From the NCBI RefSeq assembly GCF_036507355.1, contig NZ_AP027877.1: 64,000 bases of DNA; one strand, written 5' to 3'. The notes beneath the pieces are model-generated. The model ran no database searches. It was not told the origin of the DNA and saw only the letters and a list, made by a program, of their open reading frames with translations. Shown here piece after piece: positions 27,759-41,119 of this stretch (its first letter is position 1; each line of letters starts with the position of its first letter). The position numbers and the translations under genes were made by a program. Source of the stretch: Escherichia coli. GTDB taxonomy: Bacteria; Pseudomonadota; Gammaproteobacteria; Enterobacterales; Enterobacteriaceae.

Positions 27759-29636
27759 TCAGTCGGTGAGAATTTCTTCATCCGTATCCATTGTGGATGG
27801 TGATGAATCTATTTTTGTTGTAAGAAATACCCGATTCAGTAGTCTTTGCTTCAGGGCGTTTCTTCGCTCATTGTAGAACTCCGGGAAGCGACTGAACTCA
27901 ATATTTTCATCTGAAACTAACAGCATTGATGGCGAATAGTTGTTTGATGGCTGAGATAGCCATTGTTTCAGGGAAGTATCCTGTTTACTTATATTCTGAG
28001 AGTGATTCAGTAAATGAAGATTAGGTATGGTGTCCCAGTGCTCCGGATTTTCATAAAAGCTGAGGTTCTCTGGTGTATTCGCAACATAATCTAATTTTTC
28101 AAGATATTTCTTTGAAAAATGATTTCTTGGGTGAAGGTGATCAATATGAAACACCTCGGTCGGATTCATTTCAGGGAACAGAAGATGCAATAGTGCGCGG
28201 CAACGACCTTCGCCATATCTGATATTGAGAAGGCTTTCGATGTATTCGTCGTCAAATCTGAGGTCTTTATTCGAGCCTTTATATCTGTCAATAATCTTCT
28301 CAAGAGGAAAGTGAATATCTGAAAGACTATTTTTCATTACATCTCTGATACTCGTGAGTAGCGCATCTGCCTGGCTTCCAAAGATCCCTTTCAGAAGTAC
28401 CATGTAAAACCACTGGCTAATTACTGAGCGTTCATTGTGGTTTTTATTCAGGAGATTAATCGTTGTATATAATGGATGTCCACTGGTTTGCTTTTTGTAA
28501 AGCCAGTAGACCACAGGAATGACTGCATTTTTAGATATCAAAGACTGTGGATTGATGCCGAATCGCCTGATAAGAATAAAGGTCTCCTTGATACAGGATT
28601 TTATTTCAGACCATTGTTGTTGTATCTTACCGACCTCCTCTGAAGTGAAGTTTTTTACTTTGAACCGGACGTCAGAGTCAATAAGCATCAGGCTGGTTTT
28701 TAAGAACCAGTCTCTTTCAATATAAAAACCCATTTCATTATTCTGATAAATGTTTTTTGTCAGTTCATCCAGTTCTTTTCTGAAATCACCCTGCCAGTGC
28801 GCTACCGCTATTGACATCAGTAAGTCTGAAAACTCAAGTTTTGTCCCCCCGCTGTTCGTGCGGATGAAAACATCCAGCACATGATCAATGTCCTGACTGC
28901 TCTCATTGAAGTAGTGGATAAGATTCTCAGTTCTTATCTTGGTATAAAGTTTAAGCAGAGTTTTTCTGGAAAATTCACTGGAAATGAGATCTCTTTTTTC
29001 AAGTTCTGGTACGACAACGTTAAATAAAATATCATCAGGCGAATCATGTTGCTCGTATTTGAATATTTCGTGCAGGCAGAACCAGTGATGTTTGTTATCG
29101 GCAAGTGAATCAGTATATTGCTTCTCGGTCAGGAACCTGAAGTTATACTTCATCATGAGCTCATCGTCTGACTTAAGTGGCGCGGTTAAATCGACGTAAA
29201 GCTTTCTGGGTGGCAGGATGCGATCATCCTGTGCCGAAGGCCACCACATCCGGGGCTGTTTATACGCATACGTTCCACACAATCCAATATATAATGATGT
29301 GAGACGCTGCTGACCATCAATCACGGCCTTGAAATCATGAAACCCAGCATTTGTTGCTACGCAGGGGTTTTCTTCATTAAATCGCTGACAGTATTCTTTC
29401 AGGAACTCATAGAATTTGTAATCATTTTTAATACTGGCACTACGGATATCCCACATCATGAAAGAGTTTATCGGGTAGTCTCGCATGATGGAATCAAACA
29501 GCAAACATATCTGACTGCTGCTCCAGACGAACTTCCTCTGAATTGCAGGCAGAAGATAGTGGCGTAAATTAATTGAATCTATCGCTTGTTTTATCGTTAT
29601 TGCTTTTTCATACTGGCCAGCCATCATAAACCTCAT
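27759..29636 (-). CDS. GmrSD-family DUF262 (ParB-like, DGQQR motif) / DUF1524 (His-Me finger) protein; putative type IV modification-dependent restriction endonuclease
   Basis: N-terminal IKQAIDSI...YLLPAIQRKFVWS and IDGQQRLTSL motifs (DUF262); C-terminal FHIDHLHPRNH (DUF1524-like HNH); 625 aa; AT-rich. Confidence 0.75.
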   Translation of the reverse strand: MRFMMAGQYEKAITIKQAIDSINLRHYLLPAIQRKFVWSSSQICLLFDSIMRDYPINSFMMWDIRSASIKNDYKFYEFLKEYCQRFNEENPCVATNAGFHDFKAVIDGQQRLTSLYIGLCGTYAYKQPRMWWPSAQDDRILPPRKLYVDLTAPLKSDDELMMKYNFRFLTEKQYTDSLADNKHHWFCLHEIFKYEQHDSPDDILFNVVVPELEKRDLISSEFSRKTLLKLYTKIRTENLIHYFNESSQDIDHVLDVFIRTNSGGTKLEFSDLLMSIAVAHWQGDFRKELDELTKNIYQNNEMGFYIERDWFLKTSLMLIDSDVRFKVKNFTSEEVGKIQQQWSEIKSCIKETFILIRRFGINPQSLISKNAVIPVVYWLYKKQTSGHPLYTTINLLNKNHNERSVISQWFYMVLLKGIFGSQADALLTSIRDVMKNSLSDIHFPLEKIIDRYKGSNKDLRFDDEYIESLLNIRYGEGRCRALLHLLFPEMNPTEVFHIDHLHPRNHFSKKYLEKLDYVANTPENLSFYENPEHWDTIPNLHLLNHSQNISKQDTSLKQWLSQPSNNYSPSMLLVSDENIEFSRFPEFYNERRNALKQRLLNRVFLTTKIDSSPSTMDTDEEILTD

Positions 29637-29697: not shown

Positions 29698-30027
29698 CTA
29701 ATTTATGCAATGGAAAAGCTGACGGCTCGGTTTGTGTTTTTCATTCGGGTAGACTCGCATTGCGGATGCACAAAGTGATGAAACCTGTCTTGCTATATTT
29801 TTACCGAAGTTAACAAGTAGGCCGTGCTTTATTTTTTCACCCTCTGCCCTGATGCTGATGACAAAGCTGAACTGATATACGATTACCTCAATGAGGTCAT
29901 TGCCAAATGTTATGATGGCGGCGTTGTTTATTTCATATTCATAATCCCTCAGGTCAGTGTTAAGTCTTGCTGTTGCATTTACAAGTGCGTATTCTTTATC
30001 GATAATCATAACTTTCTCACTTATCAT
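29698..30027 (-). CDS. Hypothetical protein (109 aa) immediately upstream of the GmrSD-like gene
   Basis: ATG-initiated ORF on the same strand, 61 bp upstream of the DUF262 gene; no family recognised. Confidence 0.4.
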   Translation of the reverse strand: MISEKVMIIDKEYALVNATARLNTDLRDYEYEINNAAIITFGNDLIEVIVYQFSFVISIRAEGEKIKHGLLVNFGKNIARQVSSLCASAMRVYPNEKHKPSRQLFHCIN

Positions 30028-30067: not shown

Positions 30068-30781
30068 TTAATTACGATTATTCGTCTGTTTACTCCCGTA
30101 ATGCATTATCTGATGAATAATGTTCATGTGGGGTAAGGCTTCCATAAAGTCAGACTGTTCAATCAGCGAAATGAGTGTGTTATCGATCTCAAACGTTGTA
30201 TCCGGTAATACCTCAACCAGCCTGATTCGGGACAGGGAAATAACGAACACGCCCGATGACGTACATCCGGCAAGAAACCACTCCGCATGGCTGCAAAGCA
30301 GACGATAGGGATGAACGGTATGGCTGACGTTTTCGTCGGTTCTGATACGCACCTTGGTCTGGTTAAGTATGGCGAGCGTTAGTCTGCTGAAATCACCGAA
30401 CAGCGTGGGTTTCTGGCGCGGCTCCGGGAGCATAATCCGGTAGGGTGAAGGGTGCTCCCCGTCAAGCAGAAGGCTCAGCAGTTTGGCATCCATCGCGGGT
30501 AACAGACGGTCAAGATGCAGCAGTCTCGCCAGTATCTTCATATCTCGTTCCGTGCGGCGACGAAAGTAATGTGAGGCAAGCTGATACACGCCGTTGCTCT
30601 GTTCAATATCAAGGTAGGTCAGACGGACGTTGAAATCCCGCCGCAGCGTTCGCGTTGTCACTCCAAATTCTTCTGCCAGCGTCCCGATATGCAGCTTTTC
30701 ACCCTGAAACAAACGGCTCAGGATGATGGAAAGGCGGGTTGCCAGTCTGTCATGTTCGTTTTCTTGTGTTATCAGCGTCAT
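30068..30781 (-). CDS. HTH plus WYL-like domain transcriptional regulator (BrxR/CapW-like candidate)
   Basis: N-terminal HTH_11-like segment (RLSIILSRLFQGEKLHIGTLAEEFGVTTRTLRRDF) followed by a ligand-binding-like domain; sits upstream of a defence gene. Confidence 0.6.
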   Translation of the reverse strand: MTLITQENEHDRLATRLSIILSRLFQGEKLHIGTLAEEFGVTTRTLRRDFNVRLTYLDIEQSNGVYQLASHYFRRRTERDMKILARLLHLDRLLPAMDAKLLSLLLDGEHPSPYRIMLPEPRQKPTLFGDFSRLTLAILNQTKVRIRTDENVSHTVHPYRLLCSHAEWFLAGCTSSGVFVISLSRIRLVEVLPDTTFEIDNTLISLIEQSDFMEALPHMNIIHQIMHYGSKQTNNRN

Positions 30782-30883: not shown

Positions 30884-31633
30884 CTAAACGTCAGTATTCT
30901 CAGGTGAATAAAGATGCTTCTGGCGCATGTAGGCAATAAAAATGCAGGATGGTAGCGTCACCCGGTATGCGGGACCGGCTAAATCAATCAGCAGCCAGAG
31001 AGAACTGAGCACCCAGCCCACAGGACCGGCAAAAGCGCCCATGGTACGCGTCAGCATGGCATTTCCTGCAACGGTCAGCCCTCTGCCTAACAGGGCTTTC
31101 GCCACACCATTTGTGACAACAAGTGCCATCTGATAGGCCGCAAACCCGGATGTTTTTATCCCCGCCTGGATTGCCATGGTCAGCAACTCCGGCGTGGGGT
31201 TGCTGTAGCCTGTCTGCAATTCTTCCGCCACGGTCTTTAACTGATCGGGCGTCATCTTCTCAAGGCTTTTCTCCAGGATCTTCATCAGCAGATTCATTTC
31301 AATGGTTTCAACACTGGATTTGTTGTTGTAGTTCACCTTCATTTTATCGCAGGCATCGGTGAGAATTTCCCGGTACGGCACCCCTTTACCCCAGCGGAGC
31401 AGCGTGGCAAAGCTGTTCGCCCCAAACGTCTGAACCTCGGCGGCAATGGCATCCCAGTAGCGCGGGTGGTTGGGCTTGTGTTTTTTATACTGAGGATCAT
31501 AGGTCAGCGTTTCCGTGATGCGTGCCAGTCCGTCTTTCGGATCGCAGATAAGCACAGAAACCAGTAAATCCAGATCGTCACGATGGCAGTGGCGCAGAAA
31601 CTCAAGGTCGGGGTCGTGTCGGTAGGTAGCCAT
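30884..31633 (-). CDS. YaaW-like (UPF0174/DUF3944) protein
   Basis: Resembles recalled YaaW (LEFLRHC..DLDLLV, GPVGWVLSSLWLLIDLAGPAYRVT); 249 aa. Confidence 0.5.
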   Translation of the reverse strand: MATYRHDPDLEFLRHCHRDDLDLLVSVLICDPKDGLARITETLTYDPQYKKHKPNHPRYWDAIAAEVQTFGANSFATLLRWGKGVPYREILTDACDKMKVNYNNKSSVETIEMNLLMKILEKSLEKMTPDQLKTVAEELQTGYSNPTPELLTMAIQAGIKTSGFAAYQMALVVTNGVAKALLGRGLTVAGNAMLTRTMGAFAGPVGWVLSSLWLLIDLAGPAYRVTLPSCIFIAYMRQKHLYSPENTDV

Positions 31634-31774
31634 ATTTCACCTCATTGCAGATATTGGACCTGACAGTTTAAGGAAGCCACCGGACAGGGCTTGTCCGCCT
31701 GAAAAACAAAAAAGTAAAAAAAACCTGCCGAAAGCAGGTTTCTGTTCACCGGATGGAGGTATAACGCGTCGGGA

Positions 31775-32161
31775 TTACTTTCCGCGCCATTCCTTTTCCA
31801 CTTTATCCGCAAAAGCATCGCACTGCCGGGCATATTCCGGGTTATAGAGCAGCTCCGACTGCGAAAGCTGCATGGCGGTCATGCTGCCGTTACGGGCATT
31901 TGATTCGAGCCAGGTTCTGCCATAGGTTTTGTTCATCACCTGAAGTACCCGGTTGAATACCGGTCCGTTGAAGCGGGCATTGAGATTAACGCCTTTTACC
32001 TGAAGGCCGCTGTCACTGGTCTGGGTCAGGCGGGTGGAGTACATCGCGCAGAAGGTCGAGTTGGTTATCATCTGAGCGTCAGCCTGCTCGTCGGCGAACG
32101 CGCTGTGGCTGAAGGCGGAAAGCAGAATTGTGGCGGTTAACAGTTTTAAAATTTTCATCAT
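31775..32161 (-). CDS. Exported hypothetical protein (signal peptide)
   Basis: N-terminal MMKILKLLTATILLSAFSHSAFA signal peptide; 128 aa. Confidence 0.5.
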   Translation of the reverse strand: MMKILKLLTATILLSAFSHSAFADEQADAQMITNSTFCAMYSTRLTQTSDSGLQVKGVNLNARFNGPVFNRVLQVMNKTYGRTWLESNARNGSMTAMQLSQSELLYNPEYARQCDAFADKVEKEWRGK

Positions 32162-32235: not shown

Positions 32236-32475
32236 TCAGGGTTTCAGCGAGGGAGCCAGTCGCCAGCGGTGAGGGCCAGCAGATTCGAGCACAAAGGCCA
32301 GTTGAGCGAGGTCCCGTCTTGCGGTCCGGGGAGATACGTCAAACTGCCGGATGATGTAGCGAACAGATATTGTCTGACCGTAAAACAGCACCATGGTCAG
32401 CCGGATGAGCCGTTCTCCCTGTCCGGTAGCGTGTTGCCTGCGACGATTAACGTTCATCGTTGCCATACGCGCCAT
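32236..32475 (-). pseudogene. Short HTH-only ORF resembling the N-terminal domain of a DeoR/WYL-type regulator (possible remnant)
   Basis: GERLIRLTMVLFYGQTISVRYIIRQFDVSPRTARRDLAQL is HTH_11-like; only 79 aa and overlaps the 3' end of the neighbouring gene. Confidence 0.35.
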
Positions 32476-32918
32476 CGGTCCCCTTTCTGAAAAGAATCGA
32501 GGTGTCTGGCAAGCCAGATATCAGGGCATGAATTGCCGGTAACGCAGCGGGCAGTAAACCGGTGGCAGTTAAAGTCGAGCAGGCTGTAGGGATAGCGCTG
32601 ACCCACTGCCGCCTTTGCCCGTTCAGCGGCCTGCGCACAACCCTGAGGCGTCAAATCCATACAATCGGTATACACCGAGATAGCGGAGTTCCAGCCATCG
32701 AGCCGGTCAAGAAACCCTTTAGCCTTACTTTTGATAACGGTTCCATCGCCATCAAGATGAACAATATCGCCGTTACCCACATAGATACCGCTGTGTGCGG
32801 CAAGGCCAAAAAGCAGTTCGCACTGCACGATACCACCGTAAGCCGGTTCATCGACGCAGGAGAGAATGCAGTTATCGATAAATGAATCCACGAAGTTCAG
32901 CAGCAGAAGCCGGTACAT
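32454..32918 (-). CDS. LRAT/NlpC-P60-superfamily protein (start at MYRLLLL)
   Basis: His-containing HSGIYVGNGDIVH followed by a C-terminal NCHRF motif resembling the LRAT catalytic-Cys NCEHF box. Confidence 0.5.
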   Translation of the reverse strand: MYRLLLLNFVDSFIDNCILSCVDEPAYGGIVQCELLFGLAAHSGIYVGNGDIVHLDGDGTVIKSKAKGFLDRLDGWNSAISVYTDCMDLTPQGCAQAAERAKAAVGQRYPYSLLDFNCHRFTARCVTGNSCPDIWLARHLDSFQKGDRWRVWQR

Positions 32919-32976
32919 AACATTCAGTTCCTTACTACGGGGGAGAGGGGGGATGCGGGGGAAACGTAGTGAACAC

Positions 32977-33405
32977 TCAGCTTTCCCACAACGTACGGAC
33001 CGTGAAAACCCCCATATCGTGGTAAGCCATAAAGTTACTTTCCCATAGCGACCAGAACTCACGGGCGTCGACATGAGAGATATCGCCACAACGGGAAAGC
33101 CACGTGTATTGTTGCGTCCAGCTCACATCGACATCTTTTTCAAGCTCAGGCCATGGATGCCCTGCATAATGAAAATCGGTGACGTAATCGAGCTGCCAGT
33201 CTTCTCCGGCAGGGATGAGGCGTATTTCGACCGGATGCCAGCCGCCCTTTTCCGGTGAGTATTCAGGGTCACGGAAGTTAATGGTTAATCCGGTGATGGG
33301 GTGACGATGAGGCGGTTTTTGCGCGAGGATATCCAGAAGCAGTTGGGTGAACGACCGGGAGAGAGGCAGCACATAGCCGCCCTGCAATATTACGGGTGAT
33401 GACAT
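32977..33405 (-). CDS. Hypothetical protein (142 aa)
   Basis: ATG ORF, same strand and closely spaced with neighbours; no family recognised. Confidence 0.45.
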   Translation of the reverse strand: MSSPVILQGGYVLPLSRSFTQLLLDILAQKPPHRHPITGLTINFRDPEYSPEKGGWHPVEIRLIPAGEDWQLDYVTDFHYAGHPWPELEKDVDVSWTQQYTWLSRCGDISHVDAREFWSLWESNFMAYHDMGVFTVRTLWES

Positions 33406-33451
33406 AGTGAATTTCCTGATTTTTGGTTAACAGAACACAGAAAAAGCGGGG

Positions 33452-33883
33452 TTAGTCCTGGCTGAGCGTAGCAAGCTGCGTCATACGATGCTGCCAGTCG
33501 GCATAGCAGCGGTGCATAAAGAGTCTGCTGCTGTCCGCTTCGATAAGGCAGATATCCGGACTTCTGAGTACGGCGGCAAGAAACCCGGCGTTGTTGGTGC
33601 TGCCCTGACCAAATAGTGGTCGAAACACACGCGACGGAAAGCTGTCCTGCTGCTGTTCAAGAATGGCGTGAATCGCATCAAGCGTTATCCATTCACGGGA
33701 GAACAGGCCTCCTTCGCCATTGGCGGTTAAGCGCAGGGCGAGGCTTCCGGTTTCATCCTCCTTACCCAGCTCATACGTCAGCAGTCCCTTACTGTGTGGA
33801 CTGATTTTCTCGGCTTCACCCCTGTAGAACACGGTATAGCTTTCGGTGACGGCGGCTTCGGTAGCGACTTTTTTCTTACTCAT
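33452..33883 (-). CDS. Hypothetical protein (143 aa)
   Basis: ORF whose start overlaps the stop of the upstream gene by 8 nt. Confidence 0.45.
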   Translation of the reverse strand: MSKKKVATEAAVTESYTVFYRGEAEKISPHSKGLLTYELGKEDETGSLALRLTANGEGGLFSREWITLDAIHAILEQQQDSFPSRVFRPLFGQGSTNNAGFLAAVLRSPDICLIEADSSRLFMHRCYADWQHRMTQLATLSQD

Positions 33884-34247
33884 GGTTCAGCGCCTCAATC
33901 AGGTTCTGGAGTTGAGTGATAACGGTCGTGTCCGGGAACACCAGATAGATACCCTGTCCGTTATCGCAGACGATACCGAGCAGGAGATACCAGCCATCAT
34001 CAAGTGCGGTGACGTATTCCGGGTTAGCCAGTGCCACTGCCAGCAGCGGGTCTTCGGGGAGGGTGTCATCGTGGTTGAGATGCCAGAGCAGGGTTCTTGT
34101 TTCTTTCCAGAAAGCAGTAAACAGGTCGATATCATCTACGGGGCCAAGAATTTCATTGCTGAGGGCTTCCAGCGCGGAGGCTGGCAGGTTGAGAAGGGAA
34201 ATACTGGTAGGGGTTGTGAGTTTGTACATAGTTATCTCCATCATCAA
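33876..34247 (-). CDS. Hypothetical protein (123 aa)
   Basis: First gene of a four-gene minus-strand cluster; no family recognised. Confidence 0.4.
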   Translation of the reverse strand: MMMEITMYKLTTPTSISLLNLPASALEALSNEILGPVDDIDLFTAFWKETRTLLWHLNHDDTLPEDPLLAVALANPEYVTALDDGWYLLLGIVCDNGQGIYLVFPDTTVITQLQNLIEALNHE

Positions 34248-34457
34248 TCGAATATCATGGAAATAATATGTGTCCGTTTTAAGGGCTATTACAGGCTTGG
34301 TGTGTTGGATTTGTTTTTCTTATTACGAACAAATAGCGACTGGCTCAGGCCGGGATTGTTTAGAGACAGATTCAGCATAGATTCGTAAAAATAAAAACTA
34401 TTAGCGCGAGATCCTCTGTTTATGCCGTGACAGTTAACTGATAGGAGGCTTGTTGGT

Positions 34458-35163
34458 TGGATTTGCCCCTATATTTCCAGACACCTGTTATCACTTAACC
34501 CATTACTGGCCCGCTGCCGCAGATATTCCCGTGGCGAGCGATAACCCAGCGCACTATGCGGATGCCATTCGTTATAATGCTCGAACGCCTCTGCAAGGTT
34601 CTTTGCTGCCGTTAACCCGTCTGGTTTGGGCATGATACTTATGTAGTCACGCTTTATCGTTTTCACGAAGCTCTCTGCTATTCCGTTACTCTCCGGACTC
34701 CGCACTGCCGTGTTCTTCGGTTCAAGTCCCAACATCCTGGCGAACTGACGTGTTTCATTCGCCCGGTAGCATGAACCATTATCCGTCAGCCACTCCACTG
34801 GAGACGCCGGAAGCTCGCTGCCAAAGCGGCGTTCCACTGCTCCCAGCATGACGTCCTGTACTGTTTCACTGTCGAAGCCACCCGTTGTGACCCCCCAGTG
34901 CAGTGCCTCACGGTCACAGCAGTCCAACGCGAACGTGACCCGCAGTTTTTCTCCGTTATCACAGCGGAACTCAAACCCGTCAGAGCACCATCGCTGATTA
35001 CTTTCTTTCACAGCCACTCTGCCGGTATGTGCCCGTTTCGATGGCGGTACAGCGGGTTTTCGCTCAAGCAACAGCGCATTCTGGCGCATGATCCGGTAAA
35101 CACGTTTGGCATTGATCGCAGGCATACCATCAAGTTCTGTTTGTCTGCGAAGCAGCGCCCATA
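34458..35163 (-). mobile_element. IS2 fragment (right-hand about 0.7 kb: 3' part of insD plus the right inverted repeat); the left half is missing
   Basis: tggatttgcccctatatttccagacacctgttatcacttaa at 34458-34498 matches the recalled IS2 right IR; the adjacent ORF matches InsD from [10 protein letters not shown] to ...NRCLEI. Confidence 0.85.
34469..35125 (-). pseudogene. insD: IS2 transposase InsD, C-terminal about 218 codons only
   Basis: Translation matches the recalled InsD C-terminal two-thirds; homology extends upstream to about 35163 ([12 protein letters not shown]) and then stops. Confidence 0.85.
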
Positions 35164-35636
35164 ACGCAGCCCTTGCCTTACTGGTGTTTCTGGCCCTGAC
35201 CGGATTACGCCTTGGTGAAACCCGTTATCTTCTGCTTGAGGATATCGACTGGTCCCGTCAGACCATCACTTTGCGAGAAACTAAAAACGGTAAGCTTCGC
35301 TGTGTGCCAGTGGGTGATAAGGCCTTTGTTCTTCTGACTGAGCAGCGCCAGCACTTGGGCGATAAAGGCTGGGTTTTCCCCGGCTATAACACAACTAATC
35401 CGGTTGCAGAACCACGCCGTCTGCAAAAGCGTATATGTGAGAAAGCCGGTATTTCACCATTCACTATTCATGAGATGCGACACACTTTCGCCACGAAACT
35501 TATCGAGAGTGGGGCTGACATCCATACCATCAAAGATTTACTGGGCCACAGCACCATAAAGGTTACCGAGAGGTACCTACATGGCAGCCCGGTGCGCTAC
35601 CACGAGGCCATTAACAAGGCGATGGATACGTTCTAG
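35160..35636 (+). pseudogene. Tyrosine recombinase (phage-type integrase), C-terminal catalytic domain only, N-terminus replaced by the IS2 fragment
   Basis: [17 protein letters not shown] (box I), HEMRHTFAT and LLGHSTIKVTERYLH (box II with catalytic Tyr) motifs; abuts the IS2 fragment. Confidence 0.7.
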
Positions 35637-35717: not shown

Positions 35718-37643
35718 ATGAATAACATAGTGACACCCGCCCCCTTAACGACAATGGCGCGTTTTGCCTGTTCGAAACTGAATGGATTTCTGGCTCGTCG
35801 GGCTTTGCATCAGGCAAATGCGAAGAAAATCCTTAAAAAGGCAATTGCAATCAGCATTGCGGTCGATGAGATTTCGGCAAAAGGGGGGCGTGATGGTCTG
35901 CCTGATGGGTTTGTTAACTCACCGCATGGGCTTTTTTATGATGATGGCAAAAAAGTGTTTCAGCTCAGTTCTACTGCTATTGTTCCCGTCAGCAGGCATT
36001 ATTCAGCGTGTAAGAAGCGCAATATGGGTGTCGAACTCATGACCATTAATCATGCGGGTCAGTATGTCTGCGCTGAAATTTCACTGAGCAACGTTACGCT
36101 AAACCCCGATAGTGTGATTGGCTCCCTGACAGCGCAAGGTTTCGGTATCCCTATGACGGTAAAGACGAAAGAGCTGTTGGCGCAGTTCTTACAGACATGT
36201 ATGAAGCAAGCGCTGGCTCTCCCTACCTACCTTGTCGCTGATTCAATGGGATTTGTACCCGGCAAGAAAGCGTTCTTACATGGCAATATGCCTTTAGCAC
36301 AGAACATCCCTGGGTTTGATTACCTTATTTCCGTTCAGCGTACACCCGCAGGGATCGTTGAGTCCGGCACGCTGGATGCGTGGAAGGCTCTGGTGAAAAA
36401 GAATGTCCATGGATGGCCACAGATTTTTGCATTGTGTTCTGCCTTTGCGTCCATGCTGGTTGCATTGTGTAAAATGGATGTGGCGATGTTTCACTTCTAT
36501 GGTGGGTCAACGACTGGAAAAACGATCCTTCTCCAGCTTGCGATGTCAGTTCATGGTCATGGCGGGGAGCCGGGAAGTGGAAAGCTTGTCAATGTTCTTC
36601 GCTGGAATACCACGGTGAATGCGCTAGAGAAGCGACTGAGTCAGTTCTCAGGCCTGCTGGCATGTGTGGATGAGTTGGGGGCTTATAAACAAAAGGACTT
36701 CGCTTCGCTCCTGTACAACATTACCGCCGGTCAGGGTAAAAGCAGAATGGACAAGAATCTGGATATACGTGAGCTTTATACATGGGAAATGTTAATTCTC
36801 TCCGCAGGTGAAATGTCCATTTCTGAGAAGCTAGCGACGGAAAAAGAACATCTTCAGGGTGGACAGGAACATCGCGCCATTAGCCTCAATGTTTTGCCTG
36901 AAGATGCCCGTAAAGACGGCGAATCATCAGAAAGGGTACGCTGCCGCGCTGATAGTCTGAAAAATGGCCTGAGTGAAGTTTATGGTACGGCGGGTAAGGA
37001 ATTTATTGCTAATTTGCTGGCACTGGATAATGACGATGATGAACCGCAGTCCTGGGATGAAATGTGCCTGTCTATTCAGGGGGCAGTAGAAGAACAACGT
37101 GACAGTCTTGTCGGTGAGCTGCAGGAAGAAGGTTATGCACTTAGTGACATTCAGCTGCGTGCATTAAAACGATTTTCCCTATGTTTGTGTGCCGGAATCC
37201 TGGCAGCATCATGGAATATCCTTCCGTTCAGTGAAGATATTATTAAGGGTGCGGTAATGAGCGCGGCTCGTCGCTGGCTGGATGATAAACCAAACCAGTA
37301 TAGCCCACTAAAGCAGGTGCTTACGGCTATCCAGCACGATCTTCTCACAACCAGAGCGTCCCATTTAATGCCGTTGCTTGATGAGGATGCGCATACCCCA
37401 TACAACCACTGGGGGTACACGGATAAGAACGATAACATGATGATTTTCGCTCCTGTTTTTGAAGGCTGGTGTGCCAAAAAAGGCATTAAACCTGCTGATG
37501 TGGCGAAAGCATTGGCAAAAAAAAATCACCTCAAACCAGAAAGTCAGGGCCACTACAAAAAACGTCCTCAGAAGGGAGTTCAGCAACCTTTTTATCTGGT
37601 TATGAATACATTTCTTGGCTGTAACATTGGCGCTGACTTTTAA
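35718..37643 (+). CDS. DUF927-like P-loop protein (putative primase/helicase-associated replication protein of an integrative element)
   Basis: Central P-loop FYGGSTTGKTILLQ and Walker-B-like LLACVDELG; 641 aa; sits next to integrase genes. Confidence 0.6.
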   Translation: MNNIVTPAPLTTMARFACSKLNGFLARRALHQANAKKILKKAIAISIAVDEISAKGGRDGLPDGFVNSPHGLFYDDGKKVFQLSSTAIVPVSRHYSACKKRNMGVELMTINHAGQYVCAEISLSNVTLNPDSVIGSLTAQGFGIPMTVKTKELLAQFLQTCMKQALALPTYLVADSMGFVPGKKAFLHGNMPLAQNIPGFDYLISVQRTPAGIVESGTLDAWKALVKKNVHGWPQIFALCSAFASMLVALCKMDVAMFHFYGGSTTGKTILLQLAMSVHGHGGEPGSGKLVNVLRWNTTVNALEKRLSQFSGLLACVDELGAYKQKDFASLLYNITAGQGKSRMDKNLDIRELYTWEMLILSAGEMSISEKLATEKEHLQGGQEHRAISLNVLPEDARKDGESSERVRCRADSLKNGLSEVYGTAGKEFIANLLALDNDDDEPQSWDEMCLSIQGAVEEQRDSLVGELQEEGYALSDIQLRALKRFSLCLCAGILAASWNILPFSEDIIKGAVMSAARRWLDDKPNQYSPLKQVLTAIQHDLLTTRASHLMPLLDEDAHTPYNHWGYTDKNDNMMIFAPVFEGWCAKKGIKPADVAKALAKKNHLKPESQGHYKKRPQKGVQQPFYLVMNTFLGCNIGADF

Positions 37644-37818: not shown

Positions 37819-38238
37819 ATGTATCATACAACTCCTGATGAATGTCCTGAGTTTCCACAGGCGATTAGTTCCGAAAATGTGGGGAAAGTAAAATTTACAC
37901 GTTACAGGCTCTTAATGACACAGGCTCAATGCAATTTTTATGGTATTCAACGAGAGATTTTTGATGGCGAATTTCCTGCTCTTAGAGCAATTGTTAAAGG
38001 TGATTTTCAAATCGAATTTTTTGTGAAATATAAGTGTAGAGGGCTGGATTACTATGGTTCTCTTGGTGATTGGCCTCATATGACAATTAGTGATGCAAAA
38101 GAAATCGCAGAGGGAGTTTTCAATAACTGCGATGACTCCCACCGTAATAACTGGGAGGGTGAAAATGATAGCGATAGTATCGAAGAAGACATGATGAGCT
38201 ATTTTGAAAATGGTATTCCATTCGGCAATAATTCATAG
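37819..38238 (+). CDS. Hypothetical protein (139 aa)
   Basis: AT-rich ATG ORF followed by a strong terminator hairpin. Confidence 0.4.
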   Translation: MYHTTPDECPEFPQAISSENVGKVKFTRYRLLMTQAQCNFYGIQREIFDGEFPALRAIVKGDFQIEFFVKYKCRGLDYYGSLGDWPHMTISDAKEIAEGVFNNCDDSHRNNWEGENDSDSIEEDMMSYFENGIPFGNNS

Positions 38239-38365: not shown

Positions 38366-39553
38366 CTACAACGTATCGGGTAACTGAGCGCGGATACGTT
38401 CCGCCAGTAACTGACTGGTGTTCTGTAAGCGCTGAGGATGAAGATGTGCATAACGCTGTGAAGACTGACTGCTACGGTGCCCCAGTTGAGCCTGAACGTC
38501 ATATAGCGTACCGCCGTAGGACACGATGAGGGCGGCAACCGAATGGCGGCAGGTATGGATACACACTTCCTTGTCGAAAATTCCCGCCCGACGCACGATA
38601 CGCTGAAAGGCTTTAACCGGGTTACTCAGCGGCATTCCCTGTTTTTTACCAATAAACAACCACGGATTTCCCCGCTGCGTTGGCAGCGTTCTGATTACGT
38701 CCATCGCCAGTGAGTTAAGGTGAACAATCCGTCCATAGCCATTCTTGGTTTCAGGGAGCCACAGGGTGCGTTTAACCGGGTCAACATGCTCCCACTTTGC
38801 CAGACGCAGCTCATCGCGGCGAAGGCCGGTCAATAACAGCAGTTTGACATAGCGGGCAGCTACAGGGCTGGTATCGTTATCGGCGGAGAGAAAAATACGA
38901 CGAATTTCGTCCTCGGTAAAATAACGCTGTCGGGCGTTGTTCTCCCTGAGTAGCTGTACCACCCTTGCCGGATGAACAGAGGTCATGCTTTGCCTTCCGG
39001 CCCATGTAAAGACGGCTTTAATGAGTACGATGACACGGTTACAGGTAGCCGCTGACAGGGAAGTACTTAACGTCTGCTGAAGGCGCAGAATGCTCGCTGG
39101 TGTGATATCGCTCAGCAGCCTCTGACCAATGGCGGGACGGATATGATCGCGGTAGCGCTGAACATCCTTTCCCCAACTGCGTTTAGCGGATTTTGCCCAT
39201 GGCAGATAATGCTGATTAAAGAGTTCATCGAACGTCAGCTCCATTCTCTTGTTTTCACGCTCCTGCTTAGGGTCAGTGCCGGTGGCAAGGGAACGTTTGT
39301 GTTCTATGGCAATCTGACGGGCAAGATTGACGTCCACTTCAGGCCAGTGACCAATGGCGATGGCGCGTTTTCGTCCATGATAGAGGTAGCGGAGCAAAAA
39401 CTTTTTACGACCTTCTTTTCTGCTGACCAGACACTTGAGGCCGGAAATCTCGGTGTCGCTGTATTCGGCATCGGTGCTGCGTGCATCTGATGTGTTAGGG
39501 GGCAGTGATTTAATGAGCTGATTAGTAAAACGGAAGCGTTTGGGAGTGGACAT
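38366..39553 (-). CDS. int: P4-type tyrosine integrase (DUF4102 arm-binding N-domain plus catalytic domain), apparently intact
   Basis: N-terminal ...LKCLVSRKEGRKKFLLRYLYHGRKRAIAIGHWPEVDVNLARQ (DUF4102-like); C-terminal HTCRHSVA...LGHRSSQSSQRYAH catalytic motifs; strong SD (aggagg) before the ATG. Confidence 0.85.
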   Translation of the reverse strand: MSTPKRFRFTNQLIKSLPPNTSDARSTDAEYSDTEISGLKCLVSRKEGRKKFLLRYLYHGRKRAIAIGHWPEVDVNLARQIAIEHKRSLATGTDPKQERENKRMELTFDELFNQHYLPWAKSAKRSWGKDVQRYRDHIRPAIGQRLLSDITPASILRLQQTLSTSLSAATCNRVIVLIKAVFTWAGRQSMTSVHPARVVQLLRENNARQRYFTEDEIRRIFLSADNDTSPVAARYVKLLLLTGLRRDELRLAKWEHVDPVKRTLWLPETKNGYGRIVHLNSLAMDVIRTLPTQRGNPWLFIGKKQGMPLSNPVKAFQRIVRRAGIFDKEVCIHTCRHSVAALIVSYGGTLYDVQAQLGHRSSQSSQRYAHLHPQRLQNTSQLLAERIRAQLPDTL

Positions 39554-40066: not shown

Positions 40067-41119
40067 ATGGGGATCATCGTACGAATTCTTAAAGCTAACC
40101 ATGGCGATTGCATTTTGGTGAGCCATGAAAGCGGTTCAGGCACTCTCAACTTGCTCATTGATGGGGGACCTGCGACGACATTCAGGTATGGCATTAGGCA
40201 GCGCTATTCTGGAGCATTGAGTAACGCTCTCGATGATCTGAAAGGAAAGGGGCAAAACATTGATCTGGCTATCCTGACCCACATTGATGATGATCACATA
40301 AATGGTTTTATCAAGGCATTCGAAAGTCCAAACTATCTGCGTCAGCTGGTTAAATCGATCTGGTTCAATTCTTCGAGGTTAATCACACATCATTTTAATG
40401 TGCCTGAAATTTGTGAAAATAATATTTTCTTGCAGGAAGTTTCCCCTGAAACTAGCGTTAAACAGGGGCAAGAACTTGAGGCATTACTTGATGAAATCGG
40501 ATGTGTGCGAGCACCGCTCATTATGGCAGGGCAAATCTACAAAGTAGGCCCGATTACTTTAACAGCACTTTCACCTGAACGAAGACAACTCGAACAGCTT
40601 TTGCATAAGTGGCCAACGGAAGTAAGTTCAGCTGACACTTCTTCATATGAGAATGATTATCACCGTTCATTGGACGAAATTTGGGCAGATGATAGATTTG
40701 AATCTGACTCATCTATTTATAATGGAAGCTCAATTGCATTTTTACTGGAAACAGATGACAAAAAAATGCTTTTTTTAGGAGACGCCAATGACCAAGTTGT
40801 TACAAAAAATTTAAGAGCATTGGGCTATAGCGAAACAAACAAGTTGAAGCTGGATCTGGTTAAAGTTTCGCATCATGGTAGTCAATACAACACAAGCAAC
40901 GAATTTCTTTCAATACTAGATTCTCCATGCTTTGTTATTTCAACCAATGGTTCGAAGCATGGTCTTCCTAATAAAAGGACTATTGCAAGGATCTTAAAGG
41001 AAACAGATGGTGATATTTATTTTAATTACAGCAATGTAATTACTCCGCTGCTTTTAGCGCATGAAGCTGAGAGCTATTCTTCTCGTCTAAAAGTGCTAGG
41101 TGATGAGATTAAATTCTAA
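40067..41119 (+). CDS. Metallo-beta-lactamase-fold hydrolase (candidate nuclease/effector); gene 1 of the candidate defence operon
   Basis: MBL motifs HGDC, THIDDDH, SHHGS; 350 aa; AT-rich. Confidence 0.7.
   Translation: MGIIVRILKANHGDCILVSHESGSGTLNLLIDGGPATTFRYGIRQRYSGALSNALDDLKGKGQNIDLAILTHIDDDHINGFIKAFESPNYLRQLVKSIWFNSSRLITHHFNVPEICENNIFLQEVSPETSVKQGQELEALLDEIGCVRAPLIMAGQIYKVGPITLTALSPERRQLEQLLHKWPTEVSSADTSSYENDYHRSLDEIWADDRFESDSSIYNGSSIAFLLETDDKKMLFLGDANDQVVTKNLRALGYSETNKLKLDLVKVSHHGSQYNTSNEFLSILDSPCFVISTNGSKHGLPNKRTIARILKETDGDIYFNYSNVITPLLLAHEAESYSSRLKVLGDEIKF

Follow-up and report, generated by a model that had tools for sequence, protein, structure and literature searches.

Pipolins and an island at tRNA-Phe

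The gammaproteobacterial pipolins, currently defined by their primer-independent polymerase, have a published core consisting of that polymerase (piPolB), IntSXT, IntP2, a DUF2787 protein, a WYL protein, and "2 orphan proteins"; their defence cargo is exchanged between elements, and relatives without piPolB were only mentioned in that work, as ones that "possibly exist" (PMC11551731). Here we analyse four small genes at 32454-34247 on the minus strand of a 64-kb stretch of Escherichia coli DNA (the window, meaning the whole stretch), which lie within a genomic island located between glcB/glcA and tRNA-Phe (pheV). This island is a piPolB-less pipolin relative, with a backbone that is homologous gene for gene to that of the gammaproteobacterial pipolins. 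Three of the four genes, g117, g143, and a DUF2787 gene (together, the trio), are the integrase-proximal backbone of this element family, and the fourth, an LRAT-family gene, is an optional accessory gene; the short slot that it occupies, with the trio on one side and the WYL regulator on the other, varies in content. The four genes are as follows (aa, amino acids; ORF, open reading frame):

33876-34229, minus strand: g117, putatively pipolin core 'orphan' 1; 117 aa from the ATG at 34229, with a 123-aa ORF at 33876-34247 from a TTG
33452-33883, minus strand: g143, putatively pipolin core 'orphan' 2; 143 aa
32977-33405, minus strand: DUF2787 protein, a pipolin core gene; 142 aa, PF10980
32454-32918, minus strand: LRAT-family Cys-His-His enzyme, an accessory gene; 154 aa from an ATG within a longer 211-aa ORF from a GTG, PF04970

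A pipolin backbone with a different replicase

Searches starting from g117 and g143 reached piPolB loci. One of these (L064) carries the integrase, g117-like, g143-like, DUF2787, and WYL genes together with a 964-aa PF03175 polymerase. Four E. coli pipolins (L070-L073), which adjoin uvrC/pgsA, have the order Int, g117-like, g143-like, DUF2787, a DeoR-type helix-turn-helix (HTH) gene of 75-78 aa, slot, WYL, g109, piPolB, Xis, and IntP2, with identities to the window proteins of 45-46% for the integrase, 40% for g117, 54-56% for g143, 46% for DUF2787, 43% for DeoR-HTH, 32% for WYL, 43% for g109, and 33% for IntP2. Gene order in L064 is the same, with similar identities to the window proteins, and its piPolB is 36-37% identical to those of the E. 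coli pipolins; the window WYL protein is 32-34% identical to pipolin WYL proteins. By position and conservation, g117 and g143 appear to fit the two published pipolin orphans. The initial annotation could place the cluster in no known system, a statement that no longer holds, as three of the four genes are published pipolin core genes (PMC11551731) and are found in piPolB loci. What is already known of them is this record as core genes, with no assigned function.

The polymerase itself is absent from the 64-kb window and from every DUF927-type locus (tblastn with the L064 piPolB as query), and the same search recovers the E. coli pipolin polymerases at E = 1e-160. Because there is no piPolB and a DUF927 primase-helicase is found on the same backbone, we describe the island as a piPolB-less pipolin relative. 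The likeness to pipolins extends to an SXT-type integrase at a tRNA gene, g117, g143, DUF2787, DeoR-HTH, WYL, g109, and a P2-type integrase (32-56% identity), and to a bimodular layout in which the conserved half is tRNA-proximal and variable defence cargo lies beyond. In contrast to pipolins, the window island has the DUF927 primase-helicase in the place of piPolB, its replicase and second-integrase block is located between the integrase and the trio and not distal to WYL, it is integrated at tRNA-Phe (pheV) whereas L070-L073 are next to uvrC/pgsA, and it carries LRAT, which is lacking from the pipolins examined. In sum, the pipolin hallmark piPolB is missing, and all other core features tested are present except the tRNA-derived flanking repeats. 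We found no report in the literature that joins pipolins with DUF927.

The integrase and primase genes near which the cluster had been placed, in island DNA, are both present in the window. The other backbone features outside the four-gene block and the integration site are:

29698-30027, minus strand: g109, a small protein of the conserved backbone
30068-30781, minus strand: WYL-domain regulator, a pipolin backbone gene (Pfam WYL and HTH_DeoR; PADLOC WYL, E = 4e-15)
35106-35636, plus strand: second (P2-type) integrase, of which only a 3' remnant is left, cut short by an insertion sequence (IS) IS2 fragment at 34458-35125
35718-37643, plus strand: DUF927 primase-helicase, the replicase in piPolB's place (PHROG DNA primase/helicase, E = 4e-44; NCBIfam Cch1-like, E = 6e-21; DUF927 in RefSeq)
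38366-39553, minus strand: SXT-type tyrosine integrase, 45-46% identical to the E. coli pipolin integrase
46900-46975, minus strand: tRNA-Phe (pheV), the tRNA gene that is the integration site

Islands of the staphylococcal cassette chromosome mec (SCCmec) type and of the phage-inducible chromosomal island (PICI) or satellite type that have DUF927/Cch-like helicases are similar to the window island in bearing an integrase and encoding their own DUF927-type replicative primase-helicase, but their recombinases and all of their accessory genes differ from it. No packaging or helper-hijacking genes were recognised in the window island, and phage records contain no trio homologues. A phage or satellite origin of the genes was rejected: none of the four was found in phage records or IMG/VR, g143 homologues are absent from the 50,697 phage records and from IMG/VR, and plasmid matches for g143 number only two.

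Distribution and synteny

A scan with the LRAT alignment over one genome per species gave 54 loci, which were sorted by tblastn, ORF clustering, and hidden Markov model (HMM) searches into two sets. The loci of set A share the order integrase, g117, g143, (DUF2787), LRAT, and come from E. coli, Buttiauxella, Kluyvera, Enterobacter, Pantoea, Tatumella, another enterobacterial source (L002), Pseudoalteromonas (L015), Thalassotalea (L030), and a metagenome contig (L007); the order is kept in this set while identity to the window proteins drops to 29-44%. Set B consists of LRAT homologues scattered among unrelated contexts. The Pseudoalteromonas locus is essentially a minimal element of ~7 kb that contains the integrase, g117, g143, DUF2787, LRAT, a small gene, the DUF927 primase-helicase, and the second integrase.

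The trio lies beside the integrase, at 29-42% identity, in L015, L030, L007, Aliikangiella (L062), and Vibrio vulnificus (L074), the last being a DUF927-type island in which the trio is present and LRAT absent. The order g117-g143-DUF2787 is kept at 30-55% identity in at least nine independent lineages, with LRAT in five. Beside this integrase clade, g117 and g143 invariably accompany each other, usually with DUF2787 along, and g143 nearly always has DUF2787 next. Trio identity drops with integrase identity: the integrase and g143 are both 84% identical to those of the window in L002, 70% and 48% in Tatumella, and 38-40% and 32-38% in the Alteromonadales. Distant relatives of g143 are again found in integrase islands; in one of them (L068), g143 is followed by DUF2787 with a 4-nt overlap, the sole such case with a recognisable neighbour. 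In an independent pangenome study of Vibrio, LRAT clusters by co-occurrence with RNase HI, an integrase, and two DUF2787 genes (PMC12409351).

The presence of the individual genes varies within this framework. L002 and Tatumella lack DUF2787, of which Pantoea retains a decayed remnant; LRAT is kept in all three. LRAT is in turn absent from the pipolins L064 and L070-L073, from Aliikangiella L062, and from Vibrio L074, and present in DUF927-type islands of Enterobacterales, Pseudoalteromonas, and Thalassotalea. Since the trio occurs without LRAT and LRAT without DUF2787, the four genes are not one obligate system, and this candidate was rejected on their disagreeing phyletic patterns. The view of the four as one cluster therefore stands in part: gene order and co-occurrence held across several gammaproteobacterial orders, but a single cassette is not what was found, LRAT and DUF2787 each being dispensable.

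Within E. coli, the intact four-gene block was found in 113 of 5426 complete genomes, at 93-99% identity and chromosomal every time, compared to 133 genomes with the SXT-type integrase. All four genes are under purifying selection, with pairwise ratios of nonsynonymous to synonymous substitution rates (dN/dS) of 0.05-0.35 against Buttiauxella, Kluyvera, Enterobacter, Pantoea, and other copies. These ratios, together with the presence of the whole block in 113 genomes, argue that the four are not chance ORFs.

The variable slot

In the window, the slot between DUF2787 and the DeoR-HTH/WYL genes contains LRAT, g128, and JukA; L070 has three small genes there, unrelated to these, and L064 has none. 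In L072 (2853-3671) and L073 (3705-4523) the slot contains an alpha/beta hydrolase beside WYL (DUF726, 8e-7; LCAT, 2e-5; also DUF900), and because this LCAT-like hydrolase occupies the slot of LRAT, two unrelated lipase/acyltransferase-like enzymes share the position. Since the phyletic patterns separate the genes and the content of the slot varies, we read the four genes as a backbone trio accompanied by one accessory enzyme, which occupies a small slot for cargo. The small protein g109 comes directly after LRAT in Tatumella and Pantoea and is beside WYL in the E. coli pipolins. The defence gene that shares the slot with LRAT in the window is:

30884-31633, minus strand: JukA (YaaW/DUF3944) defence protein, in a transcription unit of its own (PADLOC JukA, E = 6e-72; Pfam DUF3944)

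For the Juk (jumbo-phage killer) systems, in which the sensor JukA is combined with a variable effector, fusions of JukA to a patatin phospholipase have been reported, an Escherichia JukA paired with a transcription regulator reportedly suffices for immunity by itself, and WYL regulators are common beside defence systems (bioRxiv 10.1101/2022.09.17.508391). The window is similar in that JukA is located three genes downstream of LRAT in the same slot, and a Gracilibacteria metagenome-assembled genome (MAG) parallels the patatin fusions with a single 405-aa ORF fusing JukA/DUF3944 to LRAT (L057, 7571-8788). It differs in that a strong terminator and two genes separate LRAT from JukA, and in that the conserved partners of LRAT are g117 and g143, JukA being absent from Tatumella, Pantoea, L015, L030, and L007; in most lineages LRAT is found with no JukA. 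No JukB was matched by PADLOC in the window, where JukA adjoins the WYL regulator; g128 was considered for this role and rejected, having no PADLOC JukB match. The four proteins themselves matched no system component family in PADLOC-DB v2 at E <= 0.1, whereas their neighbours JukA, WYL, and HEC-05 did.

Outside these islands, LRAT homologues (28-44% identity) have no shared neighbours, but several of their settings are related to conflict. The Gracilibacteria fusion ORF is located between two dynamin-family GTPase genes, a layout that resembles dynamin-based defence systems with the JukA-LRAT protein in the middle. In a Rhodoferax MAG (L036, 4692-6332), LRAT has a long C-terminal extension ending in a vWA domain (VWA_2, E = 2e-7), and in a Tissierellia MAG (L021, 205-1575) the long C-terminal extension is rich in coiled coil and has no Pfam match. 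Neighbours elsewhere include the type I restriction protein HsdR (L034), RadC (L023, L044), and a Schlafen-like helicase (L033). RadC-like JAB genes were observed directly beside DUF2787 and/or LRAT and an integrase in Marinomonas (L023, 8091-9116) and Rossellomorea (L044, 9851-11100); because the latter is a Firmicute, the association of LRAT with integrases reaches beyond the Proteobacteria.

The LRAT-family protein

Gene 4 matches Pfam LRAT (PF04970) with 44 bits (gathering threshold 24.3; E = 3.2e-11) over profile positions 7-119 of 120, and the structures of PLAAT2/3 match it at E values from 1e-5 (PLAAT2, 4DPZ) to 4e-4. Residues H42, H54, and C118 (in NCHRF) align with the catalytic residues of PLAAT2/3 in the permuted order, His before Cys, and H42, H54, N117, C118, H119, and F121 are invariant, together with a C-terminal WRVW, in seven homologues with identities as low as 45%. 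The arrangement of a His and NCHRF had been likened to LRAT-family and papain-fold enzymes from the start, and the family match, the PLAAT match, and the invariance of H42, H54, and C118 agree. Judged by its sequence, gene 4 is a bona fide LRAT-family (permuted NlpC/P60) protein with an intact His-His-Cys triad.

The closest known counterparts are the vertebrate LRAT/PLAAT (H-RAS-like suppressor, HRASLS) phospholipase A-acyltransferases (PF04970; PDB 4DPZ, 4FA0, 7ZOM), which share the permuted papain-like core and the order His, His, then Cys in NCxxF. Gene 4 differs from them in being bacterial, island-borne, and predicted cytoplasmic, in an identity of only ~25% over the core, and in a polar WRVW tail in place of the hydrophobic C-terminal anchor. 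No C-terminal membrane anchor was found in gene 4, whose last 25 residues are polar (…CPDIWLARHLDSFQKGDRWRVWQR) and end in WRVW, nor was a signal peptide, and the protein is predicted to be cytoplasmic. The anchor is a trait of the vertebrate LRAT/PLAAT subfamily, and Pfam membership does not demand it. A report tying LRAT to anti-phage function was not found in the literature.

The trio proteins

The DUF2787 protein matches PF10980 with 113 bits (threshold 27; E = 1.4e-32) and the solved Vibrio cholerae proteins VC1805 (2V1L, E = 1.8e-22) and VC0508 (2W56, E = 2.4e-21). VC1805 is a monomeric Mam33/p32-like protein of unassigned function (PMC2881812), and by analogy the window protein probably has a Mam33/p32-like fold. 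VC0508 of VSP-II and VC1805 of VPI-2 are members of the same Pfam family (E ~1e-22), with a Mam33/p32-like fold, and their genes, too, lie in genomic islands that bear an integrase. The small proteins of the trio are all acidic, a property that holds across the family, with isoelectric points (pI) of 4.05 for g117 (17 acidic versus 3 basic residues), 5.8 for g143, and 5.05 for DUF2787.

Structure prediction suggests that g117 is a small alpha/beta protein and that g143 has a three-stranded sheet followed by a winged-helix-like helical domain, with its most conserved motif, S-x-N-N-x-G-F-L-A-A-V-L-R, predicted to form the helix at 98-107. Neither protein matched Pfam, NCBIfam, or PADLOC, and in PHROGs each matched one family without a known function; over the four databases, the window's genes of this block gave, beyond LRAT and DUF2787, just three such PHROGs. 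Searches of solved structures by sequence and profile returned no relatives of g117 or g143, and the confidently predicted fold of g143 had no informative match in PDB and BFVD, the model of g117 being likewise uninformative. Of the family and structure assignments that had been proposed as a check, those of DUF2787 and LRAT could thus be made by sequence, while those of g117 and g143 gave models without an informative match. When 1.84 billion cluster representatives were searched in full with HMMER, 1185 of them matched the g143 family at E <= 1e-3. Neither Pfam nor NCBIfam has a name for this family, and 138 of its members scanned against Pfam gave no credible match, only three isolated weak ones to unrelated families.

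Transcription unit

The block appears to belong to a predicted transcription unit that runs past LRAT, through the 79-aa HTH gene and g128, to a strong terminator. Its further features are:

34230-34457, minus strand: native upstream (promoter) region of the operon, cut by the IS2 end, as judged by sequence and by alignment to intact islands
32236-32475, minus strand: DeoR-type HTH protein, basic (pI 11.9), 79 aa, a pipolin backbone gene (HTH_DeoR, E = 6e-6)
31775-32161, minus strand: g128, the final gene ahead of the terminator; a 128-aa ORF whose N-terminus resembles a signal peptide (MMKILKLLTATILLSAFSHSAFA)
31719-31743, minus strand: intrinsic terminator closing the six-gene unit, an 11-bp stem followed by a T-run

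The initial annotation described four ORFs on one strand with small gaps or overlaps, lying between an IS2 scar and a YaaW-like gene and ending with the LRAT gene. The ORFs are indeed so arranged, on the minus strand, with g117 and g143 overlapping by 8 nt and gaps of 46 and 58 nt following in order, and the flanks are those described, an IS2 fragment upstream (end near 34458) and the YaaW/JukA gene downstream. The cluster does not end at LRAT, since the 79-aa HTH gene, whose start overlaps the LRAT stop by 22 nt, and g128 follow before the terminator at 31719-31743, the sole strong intrinsic terminator on the minus strand of the unit. The first ORF exists at 33876-34247 but its proposed length of 123 aa does not stand: because a GGAG Shine-Dalgarno site is located 7 nt before the ATG at 34229, and because this ATG is kept in relatives and is the start chosen by RefSeq, translation most likely begins there and gives a product of 117 aa. 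A plausible Shine-Dalgarno site is present for every one of the four genes, and the dN/dS of the 79-aa HTH gene is 0.12-0.23.

Upstream of g117 (34230-34457), no match to a sigma-70 consensus promoter was found, and in four intact islands the stretch between the integrase and g117, searched for iterons and operators, showed weak AT-rich repeats only, of no evident significance; the alignment of the regions upstream of g117 comprises five rows (L001 left out). At the other end of the unit, g128 has no family match in Pfam, NCBIfam, PADLOC, or PHROGs and is conserved in E. coli-type islands and L002 only. With its signal-peptide-like N-terminus it shares a predicted transcript with cytoplasmic proteins, and JukA comes after it.

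Function and alternative explanations

Taking architecture and function as a whole, we consider it probable that the locus is a pipolin-type backbone trio serving the element, with LRAT as an accessory conflict effector. Because the trio is inherited vertically with the integrase and WYL, is independent of the replicase, and is absent from phages and nearly absent from plasmids, it may serve the element itself and not the host, a view that we hold with low confidence. The g143 protein could then be a scaffold with a winged-helix-like domain, with DUF2787 and g117 as acidic partners in a small complex that would act with or on the integrase/regulator circuit and would control excision, replication, or establishment. 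That a trio complex modulates this circuit for the element's sake is a somewhat doubtful proposal, and we advance it tentatively. LRAT, in the slot of JukA, would be the accessory conflict effector; that it is a catalytically competent cytoplasmic acyl-hydrolase or acyltransferase, acting on phospholipid or protein, is a possibility that we rate a little below even.

Several observations weigh against this reading. The g143 protein is not basic (pI 5.8), which speaks against a classical DNA-binding recombination directionality factor, and as a classical basic excisionase it was rejected for that reason. The link between LRAT and defence draws on a handful of neighbourhoods and fusions at ~30% identity. 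From Alteromonadales to Enterobacterales, LRAT has an identity of 35-44% where that of the integrase is 34-40%, and because its divergence parallels that of the backbone, LRAT would seem to be a long-term resident of the DUF927-type lineage more than freely exchanged cargo. Flanking direct repeats delimiting the island were not found: the tRNA-Phe 3' end does not recur, even when up to 3 mismatches are allowed, and no direct repeat of at least 16 nt spans the island, a search that shorter or degenerate repeats would escape. Furthermore, because the second integrase is truncated by IS2, the window copy of the island may be immobile or unable to excise normally.

A different function for the same acidic proteins would be anti-defence or establishment, with the trio, with or without LRAT, mimicking nucleic acid or sequestering host defence proteins on entry while LRAT inactivates a host factor. 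The low pI of g117 (4.05), a Mam33/p32-like acidic DUF2787, and the family-wide acidity of all three small proteins are consistent with this idea, and as backbone and not cargo the genes are what would be expected of something the element itself needs. RadC is common among the anti-restriction genes of mobile elements, and both DUF2787 and LRAT are found beside the RadC-like JAB genes of Marinomonas L023 and Rossellomorea L044. The trio has, however, no similarity to known anti-restriction or DNA-mimic structures, the genes are in no phages and on at most two plasmids, where anti-defence genes are usually common, and no route of transfer is known for these elements by which an 'entry' phase could be defined; we regard this function as rather improbable. 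The setting could equally be read from the side of the host, as a defence island with HEC-05, JukA, and an ABC-three-component system, and with type I restriction-modification (R-M) in relatives, in which a single new abortive-infection system is made up of the four genes, or of the six-gene unit, with the small proteins sensing infection and releasing LRAT to damage the membrane in the manner of PLAAT-type phospholipases, under regulation by WYL. The LRAT clade is fused elsewhere to the JukA sensor or to vWA, an LCAT-like hydrolase is found in the same slot of a pipolin, and WYL regulators are frequent near defence systems according to the Juk paper. No PADLOC model fits any of the four proteins, however, the trio is found without LRAT in pipolins and Vibrio and LRAT without DUF2787 elsewhere, and the trio is inherited vertically with the integrase, unlike the exchanged defence cargo of pipolins (PMC11551731), and we judge such a system to be distinctly improbable.

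Very improbable, in our view, is a toxin-immunity or addiction module in which LRAT is a toxin neutralised by an upstream small protein and the pair stabilises the island. Papain-fold NlpC/P60 domains are known toxin domains, and the domain type of LRAT and the tight packing of the genes agree with such a module, but the would-be antitoxins have a much wider distribution than LRAT, and their position is unchanged without it. LRAT and the small genes do not show the matching distribution of a type II toxin-antitoxin pair, no two-gene pairing is apparent, the small proteins have no antitoxin-type DNA-binding domain, and pipolins that lack LRAT nevertheless have the basic HTH gene, which in the window overlaps LRAT. 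Mere adjacency of four unrelated genes that have neither function nor history in common is scarcely credible: although LRAT and DUF2787 are each dispensable in some lineages, this explanation is largely refuted by the synteny of the trio at 30-55% identity over at least nine lineages, with LRAT in five, and the overlapping or short junctions and the single downstream terminator also speak against it.

A bolder version of a trio serving the element, which we consider unlikely, holds that the trio is a new machine that SXT-type-integrase islands need, for example for recombination directionality or replication licensing, and that it is portable between replicases, with pipolins as one branch and LRAT as a lineage-specific effector that acylates lipid or protein under the same WYL control. 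If true, 'pipolins' would be one branch of a larger class defined by its backbone rather than by its polymerase.

Implications

What is new here is the identification of a DUF927-replicase sibling lineage on the pipolin backbone, the size of the g143 family and its lack of structural relatives, and the variable slot with its LRAT occupant. A backbone of about eight genes is served here by a replicase other than the polymerase by which pipolins are defined, and because the same backbone uses a different replicase, the backbone and not the polymerase may be the stable unit of the element family. The island also provides a concrete piPolB-less example that is fairly common, present in ~2% of complete E. 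coli genomes and in Enterobacter, Kluyvera, Buttiauxella, Pantoea, Tatumella, Edwardsiella, Vibrio, and Alteromonadales. The trio proteins are obvious targets for learning how these elements are controlled, and the bacterial cytoplasmic LRAT clade, which recurs in conflict contexts that include a JukA fusion, is a candidate effector. For annotation, these "hypothetical proteins" flag a recognisable mobile-element backbone.

Other features of the island

The IS2 fragment upstream of the operon contains an orfB remnant (34469-35125), with the IS end near 34458, and it has cost the second integrase two-thirds of its length, from the 5' end, and has also deleted some of the region upstream of g117. 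The second integrase is intact in L069, L010, and L063. The first of these, from E. coli PigCaeca_1, is a simpler intact island at pheV in which the integrase is 1.6 kb from the tRNA and the second integrase is full length.

In the window, a low-GC insert (35-40%) at ~40067-46063 on the plus strand separates the integrase from tRNA-Phe. The annotation of a near-identical strain, GPEC1189, places here a ComEC/Rec2-family protein and an ABC-three-component system, which comprises two components and a 1043-aa AAA ATPase. Because the insert is missing from the PigCaeca_1 island, it marks another hotspot for cargo, located between the integrase and the tRNA. The variable cargo half of the island is headed by a gene at 27759-29636 (minus strand) for a 625-aa DUF262/DUF1524 (GmrSD-like) protein, the PADLOC candidate HEC-05 (E = 5e-231); in relatives, type I R-M follows this gene, or IS1 truncates it.

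Between the primase-helicase and the integrase, an acidic 139-aa protein is encoded at 37819-38238 (plus strand) that partly resembles the N-terminal arm-type DNA-binding region of integrases (32% over ~50 residues). It is possibly a stand-alone integrase-arm domain, and the gene at this position in PigCaeca_1 is annotated as DUF4102.

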